A stretch of DNA of 64,000 nucleotides from Dehalococcoidia bacterium (GCA_963692995.1 OY843611.1:2874440-2938439), one strand, 5' to 3'; positions 12,846 through 34,695 are shown, counted from the stretch's first letter. The notes: a model not told the origin generated them from the letters alone. A program made the numbers and translations.

Positions 12846-13319
12846 TTCAATAATTCCTCACTGCTGGTGTATCGGTTATTGGCCGGCATTATGAGTTTTG
12901 CCGACTTTTCCCTGTTGCGTGTTTCAGTTCCTCCTTGCGATTGACGCCGGTTTTTTCATCAAGTTTGCGCTCACTGGGGAGGGCAGGGACCTGAGGTTGT
13001 CCTTTAATTGTAAGGGACTGTTGCTGACCTTTTGACCGGACTGGTTGAGATAATGCTGTTACATAAGAGAATATGGATAAATATAAGCGTGCAAAAGGGG
13101 TAAATTTTATGGACTTTTTCGGAAGGGAAAAGCGGCTCGGTGGGTTATACTGCTAACCGGTCGCATTCTCCTCGCGGCCATCAAGCCGGTTTCCCGGCGG
13201 CCGCGCACTGCGGCTGCCGGGTTTTTTTGCCCTTCCGGCAGTCGCGGCAGTTCTGGAGCCGGGCCGAGGCCGGGCCGGGCCTGGGTCCGGTTGCCGGCAG
13301 TCCCGACGCCGCTGGTATA
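12846..13319. promoter_or_regulatory. AT-richer divergent intergenic region (likely promoters in both directions), containing one GCTGTTACA site
   Basis: About 470 bp without believable ORFs between divergent genes. G+C is visibly lower, e.g. taagagaatatggataaatataagcgtgc. TGTTACA at 13057-13063 matches the heptamer family of the 32.3-32.9 kb region. Confidence 0.45.
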
Positions 13320-14138
13320 ATGAGATCGCCAATTCGGTTCAGCGCAATGTCCACCGCTTACGCTTACGCCAACGCCCCACGCCGCGCCCTGGCCCGACGC
13401 TTGCAGGATCAAGTCGGCGCCGACACCCTGGCCGAATGCTTGGGCGTGACGCCTGACGCTCTGCCCGACCTGCTGGCCGACGCGGTTCCCTGGCCCAGCG
13501 CAGCCCTGGCCGGACTGGTGCGGCTGGCCCAACGAGTGGATCGGGCCAGCCCGGCGCAACCGGCTCCGCCGCCGGCAGAACCGTCGTCGCAATCGCAACC
13601 GTCTCTGCAATCGCAACCGTCACCGCAACCGCAACCGCCGCCCAACGCCGCGCCGCCGCTGATCTCCAAAGCAGCCCGACAGCAGGACCTCTATCGCCTC
13701 GTCGCCCTGGCCCGCCTGTGGGGCCTCAGCGACCAATTGCCCTTTGATGAATTCTGCCGCCTTCAGGAACTTCTCGCCCAGCTGGAACTGGCCCTGATCT
13801 TGGATTTCGGAGTCAGCGCTCCCCTGCCCGGCGAAAGATGGGACCTGCGCCGCCAGTGGCGGGAGGCCGAAACGCGCCTCAGCCGACTGCGGGAAATCCG
13901 CCAGGCCCGCGCCGCCTGGCAGCGCCGGGGCTGGCGACGCTGGCGGCCGGCCGGCAAACTACCCGATCCCGCCGCTCTGCTGCGCCAACTCATGGCCGAA
14001 GCCGACCGGCTGACCGTCGCCGCCGACGATTGCCCCGGCCCGGCCGGCGGCCTGGTTCTCAACCGCGCCGGCCTGGAGCCAATCCTGCAAGCCCGCTGGC
14101 GACAACCCTCCGCTGGAACCCCCGCAACCGCGCCTTAG
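13320..14138 (+). CDS. hypothetical protein with HTH-like N-terminus and a Pro/Gln/Ser-rich linker
   Basis: Track ORF 13140..14138 trimmed to the ATG at 13320; an alternative ATG lies at 13347, after a TATAAT at 13316-13321. The N-terminus reads ARRLQDQVGADTLAECLGVTPDALPDLL. The linker reads SSQSQPSLQSQPSPQPQPPP. Confidence 0.55.
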   Translation: MRSPIRFSAMSTAYAYANAPRRALARRLQDQVGADTLAECLGVTPDALPDLLADAVPWPSAALAGLVRLAQRVDRASPAQPAPPPAEPSSQSQPSLQSQPSPQPQPPPNAAPPLISKAARQQDLYRLVALARLWGLSDQLPFDEFCRLQELLAQLELALILDFGVSAPLPGERWDLRRQWREAETRLSRLREIRQARAAWQRRGWRRWRPAGKLPDPAALLRQLMAEADRLTVAADDCPGPAGGLVLNRAGLEPILQARWRQPSAGTPATAP

Positions 14139-15244
14139 TCCAGCCAGTCCCGCAGGGACCGCGCCCCCGCTTGCTCCCGCAATAAGCCCAAGGCTCGCGT
14201 CTCAATCTCCGGCAGACGATCCTCGTCAATTCCTATCAGCAGCGCCGTCTCCGCCGGACTGCGCTCCCCTTCCGCCGCCAGGCCGTAGCGCAATCGGATT
14301 ACTTGGGCCTCTAGCTCCGGCAGTCGGTTCAGTAGCCCGTCCATCTCTTGACTCAAGCCGCTGTCCAGACAGTCCGCCATGGTGTGGTCGGCGGCGGCCA
14401 GCAGCCCCGCGTTCCGCTCTTGCTCCGCCGTCTCGTCGTAAAGCAAAGCGTCCAACGATAGCGTCTGCCGGTTCAGCTCCCCCTCGGCCGGCTCCGCCTG
14501 CCGCGCCCGCTCCTGGGTCACCCGCTCGTTCAGATAAATCCCGTAGCCCTGGCGCAGCCCGCCGCGCTTGACCGCCGTCCGAATGTAAAACCGCGCCAGC
14601 GTGCCAAAGCGGTTGCCCCGACGGTGATCGTAACGGTTCAGCGCCTGCAACAGCCCCCAGCGGCCTTCCTGCTCCCGGTCTTCCTGGGGCATATCTCCGC
14701 AGTCGCTCTCCCGGGCGATGCGCTGGATCAGCGGCTCATAGGCTACCAATAACGCTTCCCGACTAGCCTCGGCAGCTTGTCGCCAGCCCCGTCCGTCTTC
14801 CGTTAACGCCGGCTCCAGCCGCCGCAACTCCCGTCGCAACCGCCGTCCATCCCGTGCGCGCTCCGCTAAATCGGACAGCGGCCCAGCCCACTGCGCCGCC
14901 GCCGGCGACAACGCCAGCCGGCATAATGACAATTCCGCCAGCAACTCAAGCGATGGCTCGCTGCCCAAGGCCCGCGCCAGCCGTCGGCTGACGCCGCGAC
15001 TAATGCACCCGTCAATCACATCGGCAACGAAGGGGTCTTCCTGAAAATCGGATACTGTCGGGTTTTCCAGCCAGGGCCGCCGCAATCGGGTCAGCGACCG
15101 GGCGATTAGCCGGCTCCCGGCGATTTCCTCAAGGAGCAGCGCGTTGGCTCCCGCCGGGTCCGGCGCGTCATTCAGCGCGGCGGACAGTTTCCGCGCCACG
15201 GCGATGTTCAGCAAATGACGCTGTTCCGCGGAGTAATCGAGCAT
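14135..15244 (-). CDS. sigma-70 family RNA polymerase sigma factor (369 aa) with an N-terminal extension
   Basis: Region 2-like sequence is EQEGRWGLLQALNRYDHRRGNRFGTLARFYIRTAV. Region 4-like sequence is LPELEAQVIRLRYGL...SPAETALLIGIDEDRLPEIETRALGLLRE. The start was set at the ATG at 15244 (MLDYSAEQ). The 917-aa track ORF upstream of it is antisense run-on. Confidence 0.75.
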   Translation of the reverse strand: MLDYSAEQRHLLNIAVARKLSAALNDAPDPAGANALLLEEIAGSRLIARSLTRLRRPWLENPTVSDFQEDPFVADVIDGCISRGVSRRLARALGSEPSLELLAELSLCRLALSPAAAQWAGPLSDLAERARDGRRLRRELRRLEPALTEDGRGWRQAAEASREALLVAYEPLIQRIARESDCGDMPQEDREQEGRWGLLQALNRYDHRRGNRFGTLARFYIRTAVKRGGLRQGYGIYLNERVTQERARQAEPAEGELNRQTLSLDALLYDETAEQERNAGLLAAADHTMADCLDSGLSQEMDGLLNRLPELEAQVIRLRYGLAAEGERSPAETALLIGIDEDRLPEIETRALGLLREQAGARSLRDWLD

Positions 15245-15394
15245 AGGGCCGGTTTCCGTCGCCGGGGTCTCAGTCCCCGGCATGCGCGTTTGTCCCGGAA
15301 TATACCCTGCGCCCCCGGAACCGCGCAAGGCCGGAGCGTCATCGCCGGCGCAGTCTGTTATCTGCCGGACAGTCGTGAAAGGAGGTCCCGGTTC

Positions 15395-16033
15395 GTGCTG
15401 CGGCCGTTTTTGCTCATCGCCGTCGGTTTCCTGCTGACCCTCGCCCTGGCCGCCTGCGGCGGCGGCGGCCCGTCCAACGATGATGATGATCTGGACCTGG
15501 ATATTGACTTTTCCGTGGAGGGGGGCGTTTTGAGCGTTGACGAAATGCAGGTGCTGGCGCAAAGCCGCCTGGCGCGGGTCGATTTCCTCGTCGGCTGGCT
15601 GACTCTCGCCGAATCCTTTCAGGAAAAGAGCCGCGGCCTGCGCCAGCTCGCCGAGCTGGAACGGACCGGTCTTGACGTGCGTTGGGTACGGCAAGTCCAT
15701 GACCTCAGCCGAAAGAACGACCTGATCTATGCCGAAGCCCAGCGCCTGGCTCCGCCCCAGGAAGCCGGCCAGGCTTACGCCCAACTGCTGGCCGACTTTA
15801 CCGCCGGCGTCGATTCCTTTCACCTGTCCAGCGGAAGATTGCTTGACGCCGCCATCATTTTCGGCCCCGCCTCGCGGGCTTACGACGATCTCAATGCGCT
15901 GGATCAAACGGCTTTCGACTCGGCCCGCCGGCAGGCCCGCTTTTATGAAATGGACGCCGCCCTGCTGCTGCAACGGACCGTAGCCGGACTGGAAGACGCC
16001 ATTGACGCCTTGCAGGTTGGCGACGGGGAATGA
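15395..16033 (+). CDS. lipoprotein (212 aa)
   Basis: GTG at 15395 follows GAAAGGAGG. The signal peptide with lipobox reads LIAVGFLLTLALAAC, followed by an Asp-rich stretch. Confidence 0.65.
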   Translation: MLRPFLLIAVGFLLTLALAACGGGGPSNDDDDLDLDIDFSVEGGVLSVDEMQVLAQSRLARVDFLVGWLTLAESFQEKSRGLRQLAELERTGLDVRWVRQVHDLSRKNDLIYAEAQRLAPPQEAGQAYAQLLADFTAGVDSFHLSSGRLLDAAIIFGPASRAYDDLNALDQTAFDSARRQARFYEMDAALLLQRTVAGLEDAIDALQVGDGE

Positions 16034-16057
16034 TGAACCAAAAGGCCGGAGGCTGCG

Positions 16058-17230
16058 ATGATGGCTGAGGATCAACGAAATTTCGACTACGGGGATGCGT
16101 CCGGGCGGCCACCGGACAATCCTCCTTTCGGGGCGGCTCCGCCGGGCGGTTTGGGCGGTTCCGGCCATCCTGCCGCTCCGCCCGGCGGCCCCACTGCTCC
16201 GCCGGGCAACCCCGGCTACCCCGGCGATCCCGGCAATCCCAATTACCCCGGCTACGCCGGCGGTCCCGGTTATGATCCCGCCGGCTCCTATCAATACCCC
16301 TATCCCGTCGCTGCCAACGGCGGCTGGAAAGCCCTGCTCCGTCGCCCGGTCGTTCTGCTCGGCCTGGCCCTGGCGCTGCTGCTCCCGATTAGCGTCGGAG
16401 CGCTTTTCCTGCTGCAAAGCGGCGCCGATAGCAATGACGCCAACCTTGAAACTTCTGACGATGCCCTGGTTCCGAACCTCGATTTGGACTTGGACTTGGA
16501 CCTGGACTCGCCGACGCCGGAACCCGTCGCTACTCCCGATGCCGATGCCCTGCTGCATCAGCTGGCCCAGCTCGGCTTTACCCCGCCGGCGACGGCTCCC
16601 GATCCCGCCGCGCCGGCCGGCCCCGGCAATAACTCCGCCGCTCCGCCCGGCGCCGCTCCTTGGACCTCCTTCGCCCAAAGCGGCGGCGTCGAACAAGACC
16701 CCTTGCCCCGAACCGCCGCTCCCGCCGCTGCGCCGAGCCTGATCGAAATCGACGTTATCTACCGCCTCGGTCCCGCAACCTGGCACCGGATTCAAGCCCA
16801 TGTGATGATGCAGCAACTGTCCATTCAGCCCCTCAGCGAATGGGATGCTTCCTACAGCGCTGGCCGGCTGGCCCTGGCCCAGGGACATCTGGAAAGGGCG
16901 GCGGCGGCATCAAGCCCCGTCGAACAGGATTTGCAAAACGATGCGCTCAACCTGGCTACGCGCGTCCGGGAATATGTCGCAATGATGCTGGACGGCCAGC
17001 GGCACCTCGAAGACGCTTACGACCTGCTGGCGGAAATGCAACGGGCGCTGGACGGCAACGCAGACGGCTGGTATGGCCTCACTGAGGAAGAACGGGGTCA
17101 GTTGAACCGGATTGCCTCCGACGATCTGTTGCAGGCATTGTTCGCCTTCGACCGGATCATGCAAACCTACGGCTGCTCGATCTGCGGCGAAGTCTATCGC
17201 CAGCCCGCCGAACCGGGCCGGCCCTCGTGA
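16058..17230 (+). CDS. bitopic membrane protein with a Pro/Gly-rich N-terminal domain (390 aa)
   Basis: GGAGG upstream of the ATG. PGNPGYPGDPGNPNYPGYAGGPGY repeats are present. There is a single TM segment (VVLLGLALALLLPISVGALFLL) and an (LD)n stretch. Confidence 0.65.
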   Translation: MMAEDQRNFDYGDASGRPPDNPPFGAAPPGGLGGSGHPAAPPGGPTAPPGNPGYPGDPGNPNYPGYAGGPGYDPAGSYQYPYPVAANGGWKALLRRPVVLLGLALALLLPISVGALFLLQSGADSNDANLETSDDALVPNLDLDLDLDLDSPTPEPVATPDADALLHQLAQLGFTPPATAPDPAAPAGPGNNSAAPPGAAPWTSFAQSGGVEQDPLPRTAAPAAAPSLIEIDVIYRLGPATWHRIQAHVMMQQLSIQPLSEWDASYSAGRLALAQGHLERAAAASSPVEQDLQNDALNLATRVREYVAMMLDGQRHLEDAYDLLAEMQRALDGNADGWYGLTEEERGQLNRIASDDLLQALFAFDRIMQTYGCSICGEVYRQPAEPGRPS

Positions 17231-29198: not shown

Positions 29199-29235
29199 CT
29201 TGCCCGCTCACCGACACCCGCGAAGGACAGAAAGC

Positions 29236-31911
29236 ATGGCAACTACATCGTATCAGAAACTCGCCCATCCCGACAATATCGCCCGCTGGCTCCGCGGCCG
29301 CAAGATCGGCGCCAACGACTGGCGCATTCCCCACCTCTGCGGCGGAGAACGCGCCCTTTCCGATAACCCCGGACTGAGCCTGTCCCTGGACAAAAATGGC
29401 CGCACGATTTTTTACTGCCACTACGGCTGCGACCCCGACGATACCAGAGCCGCCCTGGCGCCCTTCGCCGTCGGCCGAGGCAAGGTTCCTCCGCCCATCG
29501 CCCCGCGCCGCTCTTCGCGCAACAACGGCGGCAGCAGCAGCGGCAACGGCGGCAACGGCGGCAGCAGCGGCAACGGTAGCAACGGCGGCAACGGCAGCAG
29601 CAGCGGCAACGGTAGCAACGGCAGCAGCAGCAACGGCAACGGCAATGGCAGCAACGGCGGCCCCTCTTTCGCCCCCGGCAATCACCCCTGCCCCCAGTGC
29701 GGCAACCCCGCCGGGTTTCAGGCCCAGTCCGACCCCCGCTCCGGCTGGCCGATCCTTACCAGCCTCTGCTCCTGCGCCCTTTCCTACTCCCGGATGCTCG
29801 CCGCCCTGCCTCCCGCCGTCGGCGCCGCCTGGCAAGCCTGGGCCGATTACGCCACCGGCGCCGGCTCCCGCCGCATTATCCGCGCTTTTCCCGAAACCGC
29901 TAAATCCGGCAAATCCAAATCCCGCTGGTCCGGCAAAGGCCCTCTGGCCGGTCTGCAACCCCGCCGCTGGCTTCCCGATGCCCCAGCTCAGTCCATCATC
30001 CTCGCCGAAGGCGAAAAGGCCGCCGCCGCCGTCCATTCCGCCCGGCTCAACCTCCCCATCGTCGCCGCCAGCCTCCCCGGCGCCGCCGCCATGGCAACCG
30101 CCGACTACTCCCCCTTCGCCGGATGCGATATCACCGTCTGGCCCGATAACGACGCCACCGGCCAGGCCGCCGCCCAACGCGCCATCGCCGCCCTCTACCG
30201 CGCCGGCGCCGCCACCGTCCGCATGGTCTCCCCCGACGAATGCGCCCGCTTCCTGCCTGCCGACGCCGCTACCGTCGGCTGCGACGCCGCCGACCTGGAC
30301 GCCGCCCTGGTCCGCCTCCTGATCCAGCGCGCCGCTACCGCCGATCCCCCAGTGGAAAAGGACGATCCCTATATGCAGCCGCTACCCTCCGATCTCCTCA
30401 ACTCCGCCAGCCTGCAAGGCGAAAAACCCACCTGCGACGGCACCATGCTCCGCATGCTCTGCGCCGACCAGGGCAGCGGTCTCCTCTTCGCCGCCGCCGC
30501 CGCCGGCTCCCCCGACCAACTCCTGGTCAGCGACGACACCGGCGTCTGGCGGGCCGATACCGGCGAACTCCGCTACCGCGTCCGCGCCGCCGCCTACCAC
30601 TGGGCCGCCGCGGCGCAAGAAGCCGCCGACGCCGGACGAGTCAAGCCCGCCTACGCCCGACAAGTCAAAAACTGGGCGCAGTCCTGCGAAAACGCCGCCG
30701 CCCAAGACCGCGCCCTCGCCTCCGCCGGCGCCGTCTATCACAGCCTGGCCGCCGCCGGCGCCCTCCCCGCGCAACTCCTGGTCAGCTCCGGGGACGCCCT
30801 GGATCAGGACGACGCCAGCCTGGGCGCCCGCAACGGCGTGATCAATTTGCAAACCGGAGAACTCCTCACCGGCGACGCCGCCCGGGCCCGCCGCGTTACC
30901 CGCCGCATTCCCGACGATTACCACCCCGACGCCGTTCATCCCACCCTGGATCGCCTGCTGGAACTGCTGCCCGCCCAGGAAGCCGACGGCCTGTTGGATA
31001 CCTTCGCCTTCGCTCTCGGCGGACAGCCGGCCGGACAAATCGTTCTGCTGGCCGGCCCGCCTAACTCCGCCCGCAGCCTGCTGTCCGCCGCCGTAACCGC
31101 CGTCCTCGGCGACTTCCGCAGCCGCGGCTACGCCATGTCCCTGCACCCCGACGCCCTGCTCCGGCCCCGCGCCAGCGGCGGAGTCTATAGCCACAGCCAT
31201 CAAGCCTGGCTGGTCGGCGTGCAAGACGCCCGCGTCGCTACCCTGCCCAACTTCGACCCGGAGCCGGACGCCGCTCTGGACACCGGCCTGCTCAGCCGAC
31301 TGGACGGCAGCAAAGTCCTCGCCCTGCGCGACGTGGGCGACCGCGCCGGCGTCTCCCGCCCCGCCGCCGCTACTCTCTTCATCCCGGTCAGCGAGCAAAC
31401 CCTCGACGAAACTTTTCTCGATACCTACGGCCGCGAACTGGCCGGACGCCTGCGCGTCTTTCACTTCCCGCCGCAACCCCCCGGACGGGCCGAGGGCAGC
31501 GCCGCCGACTTGCTCCGGGAACCGGCCGGCCGGCAAGCCCTGCTGGCCCGGCTGGTCCGGCGGGCCGCCGCCCTGACCGACCGCCAGGACCCGCCGCAGC
31601 CGCCGACGTACCGCGAGCCGGAAGACGCCGCGCCGTCGCCGCGGGAACGCGCCGCCCGGTGGATCCGCGACTGCGTGGAAGTCACCGGCGACCCGGCCCA
31701 CCGGATCAGCGCCGCCGAACTGATGCGGGCCGCCGCCCAGGCCCTGGGCGGCGACGGACGGGAACGCGCCGGCGGGCTGACCCGCAAAGCGCTGCTGTTT
31801 CTCCTCAAAAGCCACGACCCCAACTTCCCGGAATCGGCGCCGCTGCGGATGGGATCGCAAGTGGCGCGGGGCTACGCCGGCGTGCGCCTCAAGCCGAAGG
31901 CGGGATCGTGA
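29236..31911 (+). CDS. primase-helicase-like protein (891 aa): N-terminal Zn-binding region, Gly/Ser/Asn low-complexity insert, Toprim domain, and a D5/P4-alpha-like NTPase region with a degenerate Walker A
   Basis: ATG at 29236 (MATTSYQKL). Cys/His clusters are HLCGGE...FYCHYGCD and CPQCGNP...CSC. Toprim motifs are IILAEGEKAAAAV ... ITVWPDNDATGQAAA. The P-loop position reads LLAGPPNSARSLL, where GxxxxGK[ST] is expected. Confidence 0.65.
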   Translation: MATTSYQKLAHPDNIARWLRGRKIGANDWRIPHLCGGERALSDNPGLSLSLDKNGRTIFYCHYGCDPDDTRAALAPFAVGRGKVPPPIAPRRSSRNNGGSSSGNGGNGGSSGNGSNGGNGSSSGNGSNGSSSNGNGNGSNGGPSFAPGNHPCPQCGNPAGFQAQSDPRSGWPILTSLCSCALSYSRMLAALPPAVGAAWQAWADYATGAGSRRIIRAFPETAKSGKSKSRWSGKGPLAGLQPRRWLPDAPAQSIILAEGEKAAAAVHSARLNLPIVAASLPGAAAMATADYSPFAGCDITVWPDNDATGQAAAQRAIAALYRAGAATVRMVSPDECARFLPADAATVGCDAADLDAALVRLLIQRAATADPPVEKDDPYMQPLPSDLLNSASLQGEKPTCDGTMLRMLCADQGSGLLFAAAAAGSPDQLLVSDDTGVWRADTGELRYRVRAAAYHWAAAAQEAADAGRVKPAYARQVKNWAQSCENAAAQDRALASAGAVYHSLAAAGALPAQLLVSSGDALDQDDASLGARNGVINLQTGELLTGDAARARRVTRRIPDDYHPDAVHPTLDRLLELLPAQEADGLLDTFAFALGGQPAGQIVLLAGPPNSARSLLSAAVTAVLGDFRSRGYAMSLHPDALLRPRASGGVYSHSHQAWLVGVQDARVATLPNFDPEPDAALDTGLLSRLDGSKVLALRDVGDRAGVSRPAAATLFIPVSEQTLDETFLDTYGRELAGRLRVFHFPPQPPGRAEGSAADLLREPAGRQALLARLVRRAAALTDRQDPPQPPTYREPEDAAPSPRERAARWIRDCVEVTGDPAHRISAAELMRAAAQALGGDGRERAGGLTRKALLFLLKSHDPNFPESAPLRMGSQVARGYAGVRLKPKAGS

Positions 31912-31922
31912 GGACGGGGGAC

Positions 31923-32172
31923 GCCGCAATGGGGCCAGGAAGGGCCGGAAAGGGGCCGGAGACGCCGGGAACGCCGCAAAAGGGCGCAAAGGTAGGGAAG
32001 GGCGGCAAAGGGGCCTCAGAGACGCCGGAACGCCGCAAAGCGGGGTCGCCAGACCGCAGCGGGGCCAGAAGGCCAGGGAACGCCGCAAGGGAAGGATCGC
32101 GCCGCCGCCGCAAAGGGAGGTCAGGGATGTCGCCGGAACTGCCGCCGCAAGGGGACGCTGGGGATGCCGCAA
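31923..32172 (+). repeat. left array of GCCGCAA(A/G)GG motifs (7 exact plus 2 variant copies, + strand orientation)
   Basis: GCCGCAA occurs at 31923, 31973, 32032, 32082, 32107, 32144 and 32166. Variants gcgcaaagg (31984) and gcggcaaagg (32002) are also present. Spacing is irregular. Confidence 0.85.
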
Positions 32173-32258
32173 AGGGACTTCGGGAAGGCCGCCAGGGGAA
32201 CGGATCGGGCCGGGCAAACCAGCCACGCCGCCGCCCTCAAATCGGCCTCCGCAGCGGC

Positions 32259-32304
32259 CTTCAAACCGGCCCAAAACCGGCCCTCAAACCGGCCCAAAAT
32301 CGGG
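32259..32304 (+). repeat. four tandem CAAA(A)CCGGCC-like units abutting the inverted-repeat core
   Basis: cttcaaaccggcc caaaaccggcc ctcaaaccggcc caaaatcggg. Confidence 0.75.
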
Positions 32305-32306
32305 TT

Positions 32307-32416
32307 TGTAACACTTGTAACAGGAAATCCTTAATTAACTATAGAGCTGAGAATTTAAAATCGAAAATTCAGTTTAACCTAAAGCACTATAGGGATCTCC
32401 TGTTACAAGTGTTACA
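32307..32416. other. candidate origin / DNA-unwinding core: a perfect 19-bp inverted repeat flanking a 72-bp, 29% G+C spacer
   Basis: TGTAACACTTGTAACAGGA (32307-32325) and its exact reverse complement TCCTGTTACAAGTGTTACA (32398-32416). The spacer has 21 G/C of 72 by my count. It contains GAATTT-n8-AAATTC and two ACTATAG copies. Confidence 0.6.
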
Positions 32417-32475
32417 TTTGCCAAAATATTAGAACAAATCACCCTAATTTGTTCGGGAAATTAGTACATTTGTCC

Positions 32476-32892
32476 TGTAACAAAAGTGTTCGGAACACGC
32501 CCCTCCAGCTGTTACAAAGTGTTACAAATCGGCCTCTCCTGTTACATTTTGGCCGCTTTTTTAGAATTCGTATGGGAAAACGGGCGCAAAAAACGCTTTT
32601 TTCAGCCGCAACGCCGCCTTCTCGACGAAAAAAACCGCATTTTTTGCGCCTGCGGAGCCGCTGATCCGCGTTTTTAACCCCGTCAGAGGCGCTTTTTACT
32701 GAGTTTTGCCCGTTTTTTGCGCCTTGGCCAGGCTGTTACGCGCCGTTTTTGCCGCTTTTTGCGCCCTGGACATGGCAAAATTTCGGCCCTAAACCCCCAT
32801 TTCGGCCCCTGAGGGCGGGAATTTGGCCCCAAAACCGGGATTTTGTAACACTTTGTAACAGCTGGAACCCCCCGTCCCGCCCTCCTGTTACA
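32476..32892. repeat. TGTAACA/TGTTACA heptamer (iteron-like) field, including a second perfect 19-bp inverted pair
   Basis: GCTGTTACAAAGTGTTACA (32508-32526) and its exact reverse complement TGTAACACTTTGTAACAGC (32844-32862). Single heptamers lie at 32476, 32540 and 32886, with a variant TGTTACG at 32734. TCCTGTTACA recurs at 32398, 32537 and 32883. Counting the core pair, there are at least 11 heptamers in 600 bp. Confidence 0.85.
32583..32765. repeat. TTTTTGCGCC boxes and closely spaced T-tracts (possible bent DNA)
   Basis: GGCGCAAAAAA (32583-32593) is inverted relative to TTTTTTGCGCC (32640-32650). Further copies lie at 32713-32723 and 32756-32765. T4-6 runs recur, several only ~9-10 bp apart. 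Confidence 0.7.
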
Positions 32893-33083
32893 CCCCGCAA
32901 CGGCCCGGCGCCGCCCCTTCCGGAGGGCCTGCGAAGGCCAGCCCGCAGCCGCTTTCCGGCCCGCTTTTTGCCCTCTCCTGAGGGCGCCGCTGCCCTTGAT
33001 CCGCGGTGGCCGCTGGACCGGCTGGGCGGCCCTTTGCAGCAGCATTCCGGGGGGTCTCGGCGGCGTCCCCGCCGACCTCGGCC

Positions 33084-33495
33084 TTGCGGCTACCGGCCCC
33101 GTCTGCACCGGCCTTGCGGCAGCGTCTCCGCCTACTCCGGCTTTGCGGCTATCGGCCCGGCCCACCTCGGCTTGCGGCACCAGCCTTGCTCAGCCCGGCC
33201 TGTGGCAGTGGCCTCGCCGGCATCGGCCTTGCGGCAGCGTCTCCGCCTACTCCGGCTTTGCGGCTATCGGCCCTGCCTACCTGGGCTTGCGGCTACCGGC
33301 CCCGTCTGCACCGGCCTTGCGGCTACCGGCCCCGCCGGCCTCGGCTTGCGGCTACCGGCCTCGCTTACCCCCGCTTGCGGCAGCGGCCCCGCCCACCTCG
33401 GCTTGCGGCGGCGTCTTCGCCTACCTCGGCTTGCGGCAGCGTCTCCGCCTACTCCGGCTTTGCGGCTACTGGCCTCGCTTACCCCGGCTTGCGGC
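33084..33495 (-). repeat. right array: 14 copies of TTGCGGC (the reverse complement of the left-array GCCGCAA core) at ~29-bp spacing, organised as higher-order tandem repeats
   Basis: TTGCGGC occurs at 33084, 33114, 33143, 33172, 33229, 33258, 33287, 33317, 33346, 33375, 33403, 33431, 33470 and 33489. Inter-core segments also repeat (agcgtctccgcctactccgg x3; taccggccccgtctgcaccgg x2). All three + frames are open, which fits repeats rather than coding. Confidence 0.9.
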
Positions 33496-33936
33496 AGCGG
33501 CCCCGCCGGCCTCGCCGGCCCCGGCCTCGTTCAGCCGAAATCCCGCGTCTTGCGGGATCAGTAATGACGTGTTCCGTCACAATAAAGTCAGGGAGTGCTG
33601 ACTTTCACCTCATACGAGGCGCTGTCGGAGATAAATCCGCTACAATTGCCCCTGCTTGACGATGCTCTTCGTCGCCAATAAGCCGCGGCCCAACGCCTTC
33701 CGGCTAACTATTCCCGCTCAGCCAACGCTTTCCGCCAGGAAGATGCCGGAACTCAACCCCTTCCCCAATCCGGCCCGGCCCGTCTTTCCCCTTTCACTCG
33801 GCGCCGGGCCAATGCGGTTGCGCTTTCCCGCCGTCAACCGCCCCAATTGCGACCTTTTCCGCTACTCCGGTCCGCAACCCCTAAACTATTCCCCTCATTG
33901 CCGTCCGCAATCCCTGCGCCTCAGTGCAGCCCAGCA

Positions 33937-34695
33937 TCAAATTCCAGCGCTCAACTCAGCAAACGCCGCCAAGTTCGACAATCGGACATCAGCATCCTGC
34001 GCCGTCCGCGACAGCCGGCCAGTCCACGCCGCTCCCGCCAGCCTACTAGCCCACGCCGCTTCCGTTTCCCTGAACTCGGCGCAATAAATCAGCGCCGCCC
34101 GCGACAGTTCCGCATCGGCAGCCACCGCTTCTTGCGCCGCCTCAATGAGGTCCGGCAGTCGTTGCGCCGCCGCGTCTCCCTCGGCCGCCGAAGCCGGGTC
34201 AGGGCGCAGCAAGGTCGCCAAGGCCGCCAGGGCTGCGCCGGCCGCGCCAGCCTTTTCCGACAACGCGCCGGGAACCGCCAGCTCAACGTCATAGGCGCCG
34301 GCCACTAGCGCGTAAGCGTCGCCCAGTCGAAAGCCGCCCTCCAGCGCCGTGTCCGTAGCCAGGGCGAAGTTAATTTCCTCCGTCGCCGCCGCCGCCCGCC
34401 GGTTCGCCAATGACAGCGCGTTTGCCGCGTCCGCTCCGGCGATGCCGGCAATCCCCAGGATCGCCGCGGTGTAGGCGCGCGACATGGCGACGGCGTACAA
34501 GGCGTATTGGGACAAGTTCTCTTCCCCGGCGTGGTCAAAAGCGCCATCTTGCAGCTCCGTCAGGTAATCGGCGAAAACGCACTCGCCAGCCAGGGCGCGG
34601 GCCGCGTAACCAGCCAGATAATGACCGCTTTCATCCATCGCTTCCGCCTGGGCCAGCGCCGCTTCCCAGCGGTCAGTAGGCATTGTCATAACCAT
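33937..34695 (-). CDS. Ala-rich hypothetical protein (252 aa)
   Basis: ORF with a GGGGGA-type SD and GC3 bias. No family recognised. Confidence 0.55.
   Translation of the reverse strand: MVMTMPTDRWEAALAQAEAMDESGHYLAGYAARALAGECVFADYLTELQDGAFDHAGEENLSQYALYAVAMSRAYTAAILGIAGIAGADAANALSLANRRAAAATEEINFALATDTALEGGFRLGDAYALVAGAYDVELAVPGALSEKAGAAGAALAALATLLRPDPASAAEGDAAAQRLPDLIEAAQEAVAADAELSRAALIYCAEFRETEAAWASRLAGAAWTGRLSRTAQDADVRLSNLAAFAELSAGI

Follow-up and report, generated by a model that had tools for sequence, protein, structure and literature searches.

Where does a conjugative element start its own replication when its replication protein has almost no relatives in the databases? The question is raised by a gap of approximately 2 kb (31912–33936) without credible genes in a 64,000-nucleotide stretch of a Dehalococcoidia bacterium genome (GCA_963692995.1, OY843611.1:2874440-2938439), the whole of which is here called the window. 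The window belongs to a conjugative element with a G+C content of approximately 65%, whose genes encode a coupling-protein-like ATPase and Replic_Relax-like, VirB6-like and VirB4-like proteins. The gap begins at the stop codon of a primase-helicase gene (29236–31911, plus strand; 890 aa from an ATG, or 903 aa from a TTG at 29200), the flanking genes converge on it, and it contains a family of TGTAACA heptamers. Our analysis suggests that these heptamers are probably the iterons of the vegetative origin (oriV) of the element, an origin of the type on which self-loading primase-helicase initiators act, such as Rep of the Staphylococcus aureus pathogenicity islands (SaPIs) and other phage-inducible chromosomal islands (PICIs), the P4 alpha protein and pRN1 ORF904. 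The origin itself is a prediction; its anatomy, enrichment, position and association with helicase genes are observed, and the winged helix is modelled. We infer that the primase-helicase binds the iterons and that initiation occurs at the cluster. The layout of such an origin is already known, and the structure described here adds one more case of a known origin type.

The heptamer is a pseudo-palindrome of the form TGT-N-ACA. The window contains 12 exact copies of TGTAACA/TGTTACA, whereas 1.14 +/- 1.10 were expected from 100 dinucleotide shuffles, the largest count among which was 4. Eleven of the 12 copies lie within 32307–32892, and a local-composition model expects 0.08 for 32201–33000. 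The other TGT-N-ACA variants, TGTCACA and TGTGACA, are absent from the whole window. The preliminary description of this DNA, which had called the family iteron-like and proposed that its enrichment be checked, is supported by these counts; it had placed the family at 32476–32892, where heptamers do occur, but that range misses four of them (32307, 32316, 32401 and 32410), which belong to the inverted pair I1.

The heptamers are grouped as four doublets, U1 to U4, of the form 5'-TGTAACAC(T)TTGTAACAG, which lie in the arms of two inverted pairs. The left arm of I1 (32307–32333) carries U1 (32307–32322, plus strand; TGTAACAC TT GTAACAG) with heptamers at 32307 and 32316, and the right arm (32390–32416) carries its mirror image U2 (32401–32416, minus strand) with heptamers at 32401 and 32410, the spacing being 9 bp in each. 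According to the repeat finder, the I1 arms are 27 nt long, 93% complementary and 56 nt apart, and the pair extends over 110 bp in total. The second pair, I2, extends over 363 bp and consists of a left arm with U3 (32504–32528, minus strand; heptamers 32510 and 32520) and a right arm with U4 (32842–32866, plus strand; heptamers 32844 and 32854); the spacing here is 10 bp, and the 25-nt arms are 100% complementary with 313 nt between them. The observation that GCTGTTACAAAGTGTTACA (32508–32526) recurs as its exact reverse complement at 32844–32862 is therefore correct, and the pair extends to 25 nt. U1 and U2 point inward across their spacer, and U3 and U4 point apart; in I1, TGTAACAC takes the outer position, and in I2 the inner one.

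Three single heptamers and one variant, all at the positions first described, accompany the doublets. The first (32476–32482, plus strand) is followed by the near-palindrome GTGTTCGGAACAC at 32487–32499, and we read the two together (32476–32499) as a doublet unit of the U3 kind in degenerate form; the direct-repeat family D15 (32483–32506 versus 32516–32539, 71%) covers the same part of the gap. The second (32540–32546, minus strand) lies 20 bp from the second U3 heptamer, in helical phase with the U3 copy. The third (32886–32892, minus strand) faces U4 and is 32 bp away from the second heptamer of that doublet. The variant reads TGTTACG (32734), and the extended form TCCTGTTACA occurs three times, as had been noted, at 32398, 32537 and 32883. 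Since neighbouring heptamers are spaced by 9, 10, 20 or 32 bp, most of them lie on one helical face.

Long, near-perfect inverted repeats (27 nt at 93%; 25 nt at 100%) that start with TGT and enclose a non-coding interior, together with C-rich runs on either side of I2, are also what nested or adjacent miniature inverted-repeat transposable elements would look like, I1 (110 bp) and I2 (363 bp) then having terminal inverted repeats with transposase-binding heptamers. However, the doublet orientation is reversed between I1 and I2, which is ill-suited to one transposase acting on defined ends, and I1 lacks a target-site duplication. There is no further copy in the window and no high-G+C copy in a metagenome scan, and more than 200 other loci show multi-copy clusters by helicase genes rather than dispersed two-ended units. 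We regard the transposable-element explanation as extremely improbable.

The I1 spacer (32323–32400) is the proposed unwinding region of the origin. Its A+T content, 68% over the full length, reaches 73% across the inner 56 nt (32334–32389), against 35% in the window; it contains two CTATAG palindromes, and I1 has a hairpin or cruciform potential of -26.2 kcal/mol (z = -7.7). The spacer sequence CACTATAGGGA was also considered as a T7-like promoter, a reading that was dropped, as Pfam scans of the window open reading frames (ORFs) gave no single-subunit RNA polymerase. The sole sigma-70-like site of the gap, GTAACA-18-TATAGT (32415 to 32386, minus strand), uses a heptamer as its -35 element and is aimed into the A+T-rich spacer, and a weaker mirror-image site, GTAACA-17-TATAGA, is found on the other I1 arm. 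These heptamer-based sites might reflect transcriptional activation of the origin, or coincidence.

Inverted repeats occur in origins of transfer (oriT) as well, where they are recognised by relaxosome proteins, and the element has the coupling protein, VirB4-like ATPase, VirB6-like and Replic_Relax-like proteins that could accompany such a site. Nevertheless, the candidate relaxase and coupling-protein genes are approximately 26 kb away, the phage loci with heptamer clusters lack conjugation genes, and eleven oriented iterons about an A+T-rich centre are the anatomy of an oriV. An oriT in this gap is, in our view, very improbable.

The neighbouring gene provides a candidate binder for the oriV. 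The primase-helicase matches the Pfam families D5_N (5.6e-9) and Toprim_3 (1.2e-4); its P-loop core is degenerate, and it ends in a predicted winged helix. The structural model of the full protein was discarded (predicted local distance difference test score, pLDDT, 44), and the C-terminal domain (aa 805–903; 31612–31908, plus strand), which we propose as the iteron-binding domain, was modelled alone. AlphaFold2 predicts a winged-helix topology (H-b-b-H-H-b-b) for these last 99 residues with a pLDDT of 85.7. The best Foldseek matches of this model in the PDB were RFX5 (8zjr_M, E 7.8e-4) and RFX1's DNA-binding domain (DBD; 1dp7_P), and its matches among the viral structures of BFVD were to phage primases, VapE proteins and D5 helicase-primases, in each case in the C-terminal part. 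No sequence similarity of the window protein to solved structures, including P4 alpha's origin-binding domain (OBD), was detected. A resemblance to RFX is known for the winged helices of both P4 alpha and pRN1 ORF904 (PMC2777425; PMC10516667). The monomer site of RFX is GTTRCY (PMC10530576); TGTTACA has GTTRC in common with it and agrees at 5 of 6 positions, the sixth base being A rather than Y, which is a likeness in sequence. One D5-type helicase at another cluster locus showed a weak Pfam RFX_DNA_binding match in its C-terminus (E 7e-4). Among the binders proposed in the preliminary description, the 891/903-aa primase-helicase, through its modelled C-terminal winged helix, is the most likely and is the one that the evidence favours.

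The same motif and layout recur in other phages and mobile elements. A doublet pattern found 91 loci in viral contigs, 17 of which were true clusters with 5–15 heptamers in 600 bp, arranged as forward copies, a 60–110-bp A+T-rich spacer and reverse copies, as in the window. The architecture pattern TGTAACA N1-3 TGTAACA N60-90 TGTTACA found at least 120 loci in the viral collection and at least 119 in the genome collection; among the matches listed from the latter, 81 of 119 had at least 5 heptamers within 500 bp, and these came from Bacteroidota, Clostridia, Streptococcus, Cyanobacteria, Gammaproteobacteria, Chloroflexota and candidate phyla. Two composition-matched pseudo-palindromic heptamers, TTGACAA and GTTAAAC, gave 37 and 10 loci in the same architecture, so that the TGTAACA architecture is at least 3–12 times commoner. 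The flanks of the motif are also constrained. Across 98 viral sites, the base at -1 was T or G in 81 and the base at +7 was C or G in 92 and never T; among the 11 sites of the window, +7 was C or G in 10 and never T, and -1 was T or G in 8. The motif with these flanks, K-TGTAACA-S, occurs in the same layout in more than 230 phage and bacterial loci. Literature queries by motif gave no relevant match.

The position of these clusters relative to genes points to replication. In a seed-based census of the matches listed, a helicase gene (D5, VapE, DUF927 or AAA_25) ended within 400 nt of the motif at 51 of 230 loci and began there at none. Pfam assignments for the 68 ORFs that end no more than 200 nt from a cluster included DUF5906 (15), VapE-like (11), DUF927 (4) and AAA_25 (3). 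Genes running into a cluster encode VapE-like proteins (L019, L039, L050, L124, L150, L160 and L196), D5_N, DUF5906 and Pox_D5 proteins (L011 and L060), proteins combining a Toprim domain or zinc ribbon with DUF927 and a Cch-type helix-turn-helix (HTH) domain (L128, Proteus L200 and Xenorhabdus L201), and AAA_25 proteins with a C-terminal HTH (L054, L057 and L086). A further example is a P4-like satellite of E. coli (L212, NZ_CP028769.1, 7940–8140), where GGTAACA/TGTTACC repeats directly follow a DUF927 primase-helicase gene, and whose other genes are Icd-like, ogr/Delta-like, P2-family capsid and, at tRNA-Arg, integrase; homologs of its helicase are present in 918 of 5,426 complete E. coli genomes, and its repeats (GTTACC) match the RFX site GTTRCY at 6 of 6 positions. 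The position of the cluster 3' of the primase-helicase gene, the opposed doublets about an A+T-rich spacer and the same layout at other helicase 3' ends thus support the origin function that the preliminary description had suggested.

The two control heptamers, at viral loci L341–L387, were also found at helicase 3' ends (TTGACAA 4 of 37, GTTAAAC 5 of 10); they were intended as negative controls and give no null rate. They are probably iterons of other origins with the same architecture. As the control heptamers show the same 3'-end bias, the architecture is general, the repeat word differs by element, and TGTAACA is a very common word.

The heptamers could instead be operators or a centromere for another element protein, a repressor or partition adaptor, serving transcription control, segregation or copy-number handcuffing. 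The 9–10-bp spacing would suit tandem winged-helix regulators and ParR/ParG-type centromeres equally, large tandem arrays (including 15.6 copies of a 29-bp unit) flank the cluster, a heptamer forms the -35 element of GTAACA-18-TATAGT, and a remote copy lies in a promoter-like spacer. However, because the genes converge on the gap, no gene is present there to control, which disfavours an operator or promoter role. No ParA/ParB-type domain was found in approximately 50 ORFs scanned, and elsewhere the motif tracks helicase 3' ends by 51 to 0 among the matches listed. Moreover, BLAST detected no protein common to the window and the cluster-bearing viral loci. We therefore consider an operator or centromere improbable.

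Several observations weigh against an oriV served by a self-loading initiator, and the first of them concern the primase-helicase. In a MAFFT alignment with six relatives, namely the homolog P0002 and five D5-type helicases, all of which keep the Walker A GK and the sensor-1 Asn, the window protein has GPPNSARS at Walker A (30990–31020) in place of G..xGK[ST] and FIPVS at sensor 1 (approximately 31360–31380) in place of Asn. Despite its D5_N match, it lacks the intact ATPase of the superfamily 3 (SF3)/D5 type that initiators of the SaPI/PICI/P4 type have. Judged from these residues, the ATPase is probably dead, and since the Walker A GK and the sensor-1 Asn are missing, a self-loading, ATP-driven helicase is doubtful for this element. 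The protein may bind the origin and act as primase but depend on a host helicase, or the module may be a recently inactivated relic.

A relic would retain the layout of an origin in a module that is no longer used, with an ATPase-dead initiator in an element within a 3.29-Mb contig, its repeats being kept because inactivation was recent. The changes of GK to AR in Walker A and of N to S in sensor 1 agree with this, as does the finding that the only database copy is on a 3,293,860-bp contig with no relatives of the element found. However, the 2.7-kb ORF is intact, with a G+C content at third codon positions (GC3) of 0.83, and retains the Toprim E...DxD motifs, and the I2 arms are perfect at 25 of 25 positions and the heptamers exact at 11 of 11, unlike the outcome of neutral decay. 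That the repeats are perfect and the ORF intact speaks against a long period of decay, and the protein could still serve as origin binder and primase with a host helicase. A relic thus seems rather unlikely to us.

The remaining difficulties concern relatives and neighbours. At approximately three quarters of the cluster loci, no recognised helicase was found within 400 nt, in a census whose seed search has low sensitivity and whose loci are in many cases truncated. Between the helicase families at TGTAACA clusters, no sequence similarity of the C-terminal domains was detectable, and a common binder across these families is suggested by fold and position. A common C-terminal domain and origin module swapped between helicase families was considered and rejected at the sequence level, where there is no significant similarity; the idea survives at the fold level only. 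The first heptamer of the window (32307) lies 396 nt past the primase-helicase stop codon (31911), with another repeat array filling the interval, whereas SaPI iterons directly follow the gene. Close relatives for phylogenetic footprinting were absent from the plasmid, genome and metagenome scans. In the protein database, the relatives were the protein itself (P0001, 100% identity, on the 3,293,860-bp contig), P0002 (33% identity) and a weak partial match, P0003. DNA and protein searches of a plasmid collection with the region and the helicase gave no match, a phage collection gave one weak match (to Microbacterium phage Cece, with 29% identity across 20% of the query), a protein scan of genome contigs for the helicase found nothing, and a metagenome scan for the U1 19-mer found 10 A+T-rich matches and no high-G+C relative. 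A Gly/Ser/Asn low-complexity linker of approximately 50 residues (NNGGSSSGNGGNGG..., approximately 29510–29665) between the N-terminal zinc-binding region and the Toprim domain probably swamped the word-based homology search.

The only real helicase homolog, P0002, is encoded on metagenome contig L001, in a unit of approximately 8.4 kb that is repeated in tandem and is probably a small circular replicon. Its C-terminal domain is similar, yet its repeats differ: a 54-bp palindrome built from GTAGGG/CCCTAC hexamers (L001 7480–7533) begins 21 nt past the stop codon. In SaPIs, element-specific iterons are the rule, and the different repeat of the homolog therefore fits an oriV in the window as well.

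Further features of the gap accompany the proposed origin. The zone enclosed by I2 (32547–32841) contains T-runs, TTTTTTGCGCC-type copies and the TGTTACG variant. Eight T-runs of at least 5 bases (32557–32760), all inside I2 as the preliminary description had it, are phased at 10.5 bp with a resultant of 0.93, against at most 0.35 at other periods tested, which suggests intrinsically bent DNA between U3 and U4. Distances of 73 and 42 bp, near multiples of the helical turn, separate the TTTTTTGCGCC-type copies at 32640, 32713 and 32755; an inverted copy, GGCGCAAAAAACG, is at 32583, and the repeat families D9, D12, D14, I21 and I22 also lie in this zone. A structured RNA in the T-tract zone was considered and rejected, its fold energy being ordinary (z = 0.1), and Rfam and tRNA searches of the window gave no match. 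No DnaA box, allowing up to one mismatch, was found in 31900–33950.

Accessory arrays flank the heptamer zone. On the left, approximately 8 irregularly spaced (A)CGCCGCAA(A)GGG repeats (31920–32200, plus strand) are followed by tandem AAACCGGCCC-type repeats with periods of 11–12 and 23 bp that abut U1 (32215–32303, plus strand). On the right, 15.6 tandem copies of a 29-bp unit with CCGCAAG(C/G)C (33058–33514, minus strand) are associated with the inverted pairs I3–I8. The left and right arrays have the core GCCGCAA(G/A)G in common, in opposite orientation, and may be auxiliary or control sites, control iterons or a centromere. At two loci on Dehalococcoidia chromosomes (L181 2380–2405; L132 5890–5915), AAACCGGCCC/AAATCGGCCC-type short repeats adjoin heptamers as in the window, and TTTTGGCGG-TTTTT motifs and CTATAG spacer palindromes are common to all three; the window and these two loci have no protein in common at the BLAST level.

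If the gap is an oriV, initiation might proceed as follows. The C-terminal winged helices of an oligomerising primase-helicase would bind the heptamers, copies 9–10 bp apart presenting themselves on one face of the helix. Two assemblies would load on either side of the A+T-rich spacer (U1 >> << U2), the spacer would melt, and the Toprim primase would then begin synthesis. Given the lost Walker A GK and sensor-1 Asn, unwinding would possibly be performed by a host helicase. The bent T-tract zone with U3 and U4 could act as an auxiliary or second loading site, and the GCCGCAA arrays could be accessory or control sites.

The twelfth heptamer lies outside this system. The preliminary description had reported GCTGTTACA at 13055–13063, in the intergenic region that heads an operon for a 314-aa protein, and had proposed that one DNA-binding protein couples the origin to transcription of that operon. 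The copy (heptamer at 13057) is present, but it is not beyond chance, with 1 copy outside the cluster against 1.1–2.3 expected. Its -1 base in the TGTAACA orientation is A, which is seen in only 4 of the 98 viral sites, and with a chance-level count and a disfavoured flank the proposed coupling is unsupported. One isolated heptamer in a promoter at a distance of 19 kb is no ground for assuming a regulatory link, even though it occupies part of the spacer in a promoter-like site, TTGAGA-16-GAGAAT (13045–13072, plus strand). Approximately 120 nt after that site there is a strong terminator-like hairpin (13193–13221; 13 pairs, 11 of them G-C, then T7), and 13045–13230 could give a short non-coding transcript or a leader upstream of the gene at 13320. 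A 917-aa protein (14135–16888, minus strand) shows weak matches to sigma-70 regions 2 and 4, all of them within its last 200 residues; a sigma-like factor encoded by the element and fused to a large N-terminal part is one possible reading of it.

This study places a probable vegetative origin, with a core at 32307–32416 and an auxiliary module extending to 32892, and names its most likely binder. A minimal replicon or copy-number test can thereby be designed easily for this conjugative element, whose replication protein is nearly without relatives in the databases. The simple pattern of two TGTAACA copies, 60–90 nt and TGTTACA also locates, in hundreds of uncultivated mobile elements and phages of many phyla, candidate origins that adjoin helicase genes, and could be used as an annotation rule. 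In addition, the results yield the testable idea that an RFX-like C-terminal domain of helicases may read a GTTAC word near the half-site of eukaryotic RFX. A bolder form of this idea, which we put forward tentatively and hold to be doubtful, is that K-TGTAACA-S, with its core GTTAC, is a cross-phylum origin word read by the RFX-like winged helix that ends helicases of the D5, VapE, DUF927 and kindred replicative types in phages, satellites and conjugative elements, that the RFX half-site is the same protein–DNA code, and that the word is used in the window by an ATPase-dead initiator borrowing a host helicase. If this were true, RFX transcription factors would have obtained their fold and DNA specificity from the origin-binding domain of a mobile-element helicase.

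The comparison with known systems defines what is shared and what is particular to this element. The RFX DBD on the X-box provides the best structural match of the C-terminal model and has GTTRC in its site; in contrast, RFX is a transcription factor whose dimers bind palindromic X-boxes. Classical iteron plasmids (pPS10, RK2, F and P1) likewise have initiator-site repeats by an A+T-rich unwinding region and extra control arrays. Their repeats, however, are direct and 17–22 bp long, they have DnaA boxes, and their dimeric winged-helix Rep recruits host DnaB, whereas the units here are 7 bp long in opposed sets and no DnaA box is present. With 7-bp opposed units, no DnaA box and no Rep_3-type protein among the ORFs scanned with Pfam, a classical Rep_3-type origin was rejected.

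The origin of pRN1 is closer in form, as an inverted repeat of approximately 100 bp (21-nt stem, 58-nt loop) lies 54 bp 3' of orf904 (PMC4234260), comparable to the 27-nt arms and 56-nt spacer of I1. It differs in having an archaeo-eukaryotic prim-pol and no recognisable iterons, and specific binding was not found for pRN1 (PMC2777425). Bordetella phage BIP-1 is grouped with the pRN1 ORF904 origin among the closest known systems. Replication of P4 needs a second, distant cis site, crr, in addition to ori. The P4 alpha protein, which the primase-helicase described here resembles in its predicted domains, combines in one polypeptide a Toprim primase, D5_N, an SF3 helicase and an RFX-like C-terminal winged-helix OBD that binds short repeats (PMC4234260; PMC2777425).

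SaPI and PICI origins (SaPI1, SaPIbov1, SaPI5 and EcCICFT073) complete the comparison. A SaPI ori consists of 6–12 iterons just 3' of rep, of which no fewer than 2 lie on each side of an A+T-rich centre, the two sides being oppositely oriented, and the C-terminal winged helix of SaPI Rep binds the iterons (PMC9371898); the functionally tested origins of E. coli PICIs "always" have two iteron sets around an A+T-rich region (PMC6092414). The window differs from these in that the origin belongs to a large conjugative element rather than a phage satellite, in its second inverted pair around a phased T-tract zone and its long accessory arrays, and in its Toprim-type primase and a helicase without key ATPase residues. 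In common with them, it has a proposed origin 3' of the gene for its proposed initiator, an SF3-type helicase or primase-helicase, short iterons (5–7 nt) in two opposed sets with at least two per side around an A+T-rich centre, no DnaA boxes, and a C-terminal winged helix, here predicted, as the iteron reader.

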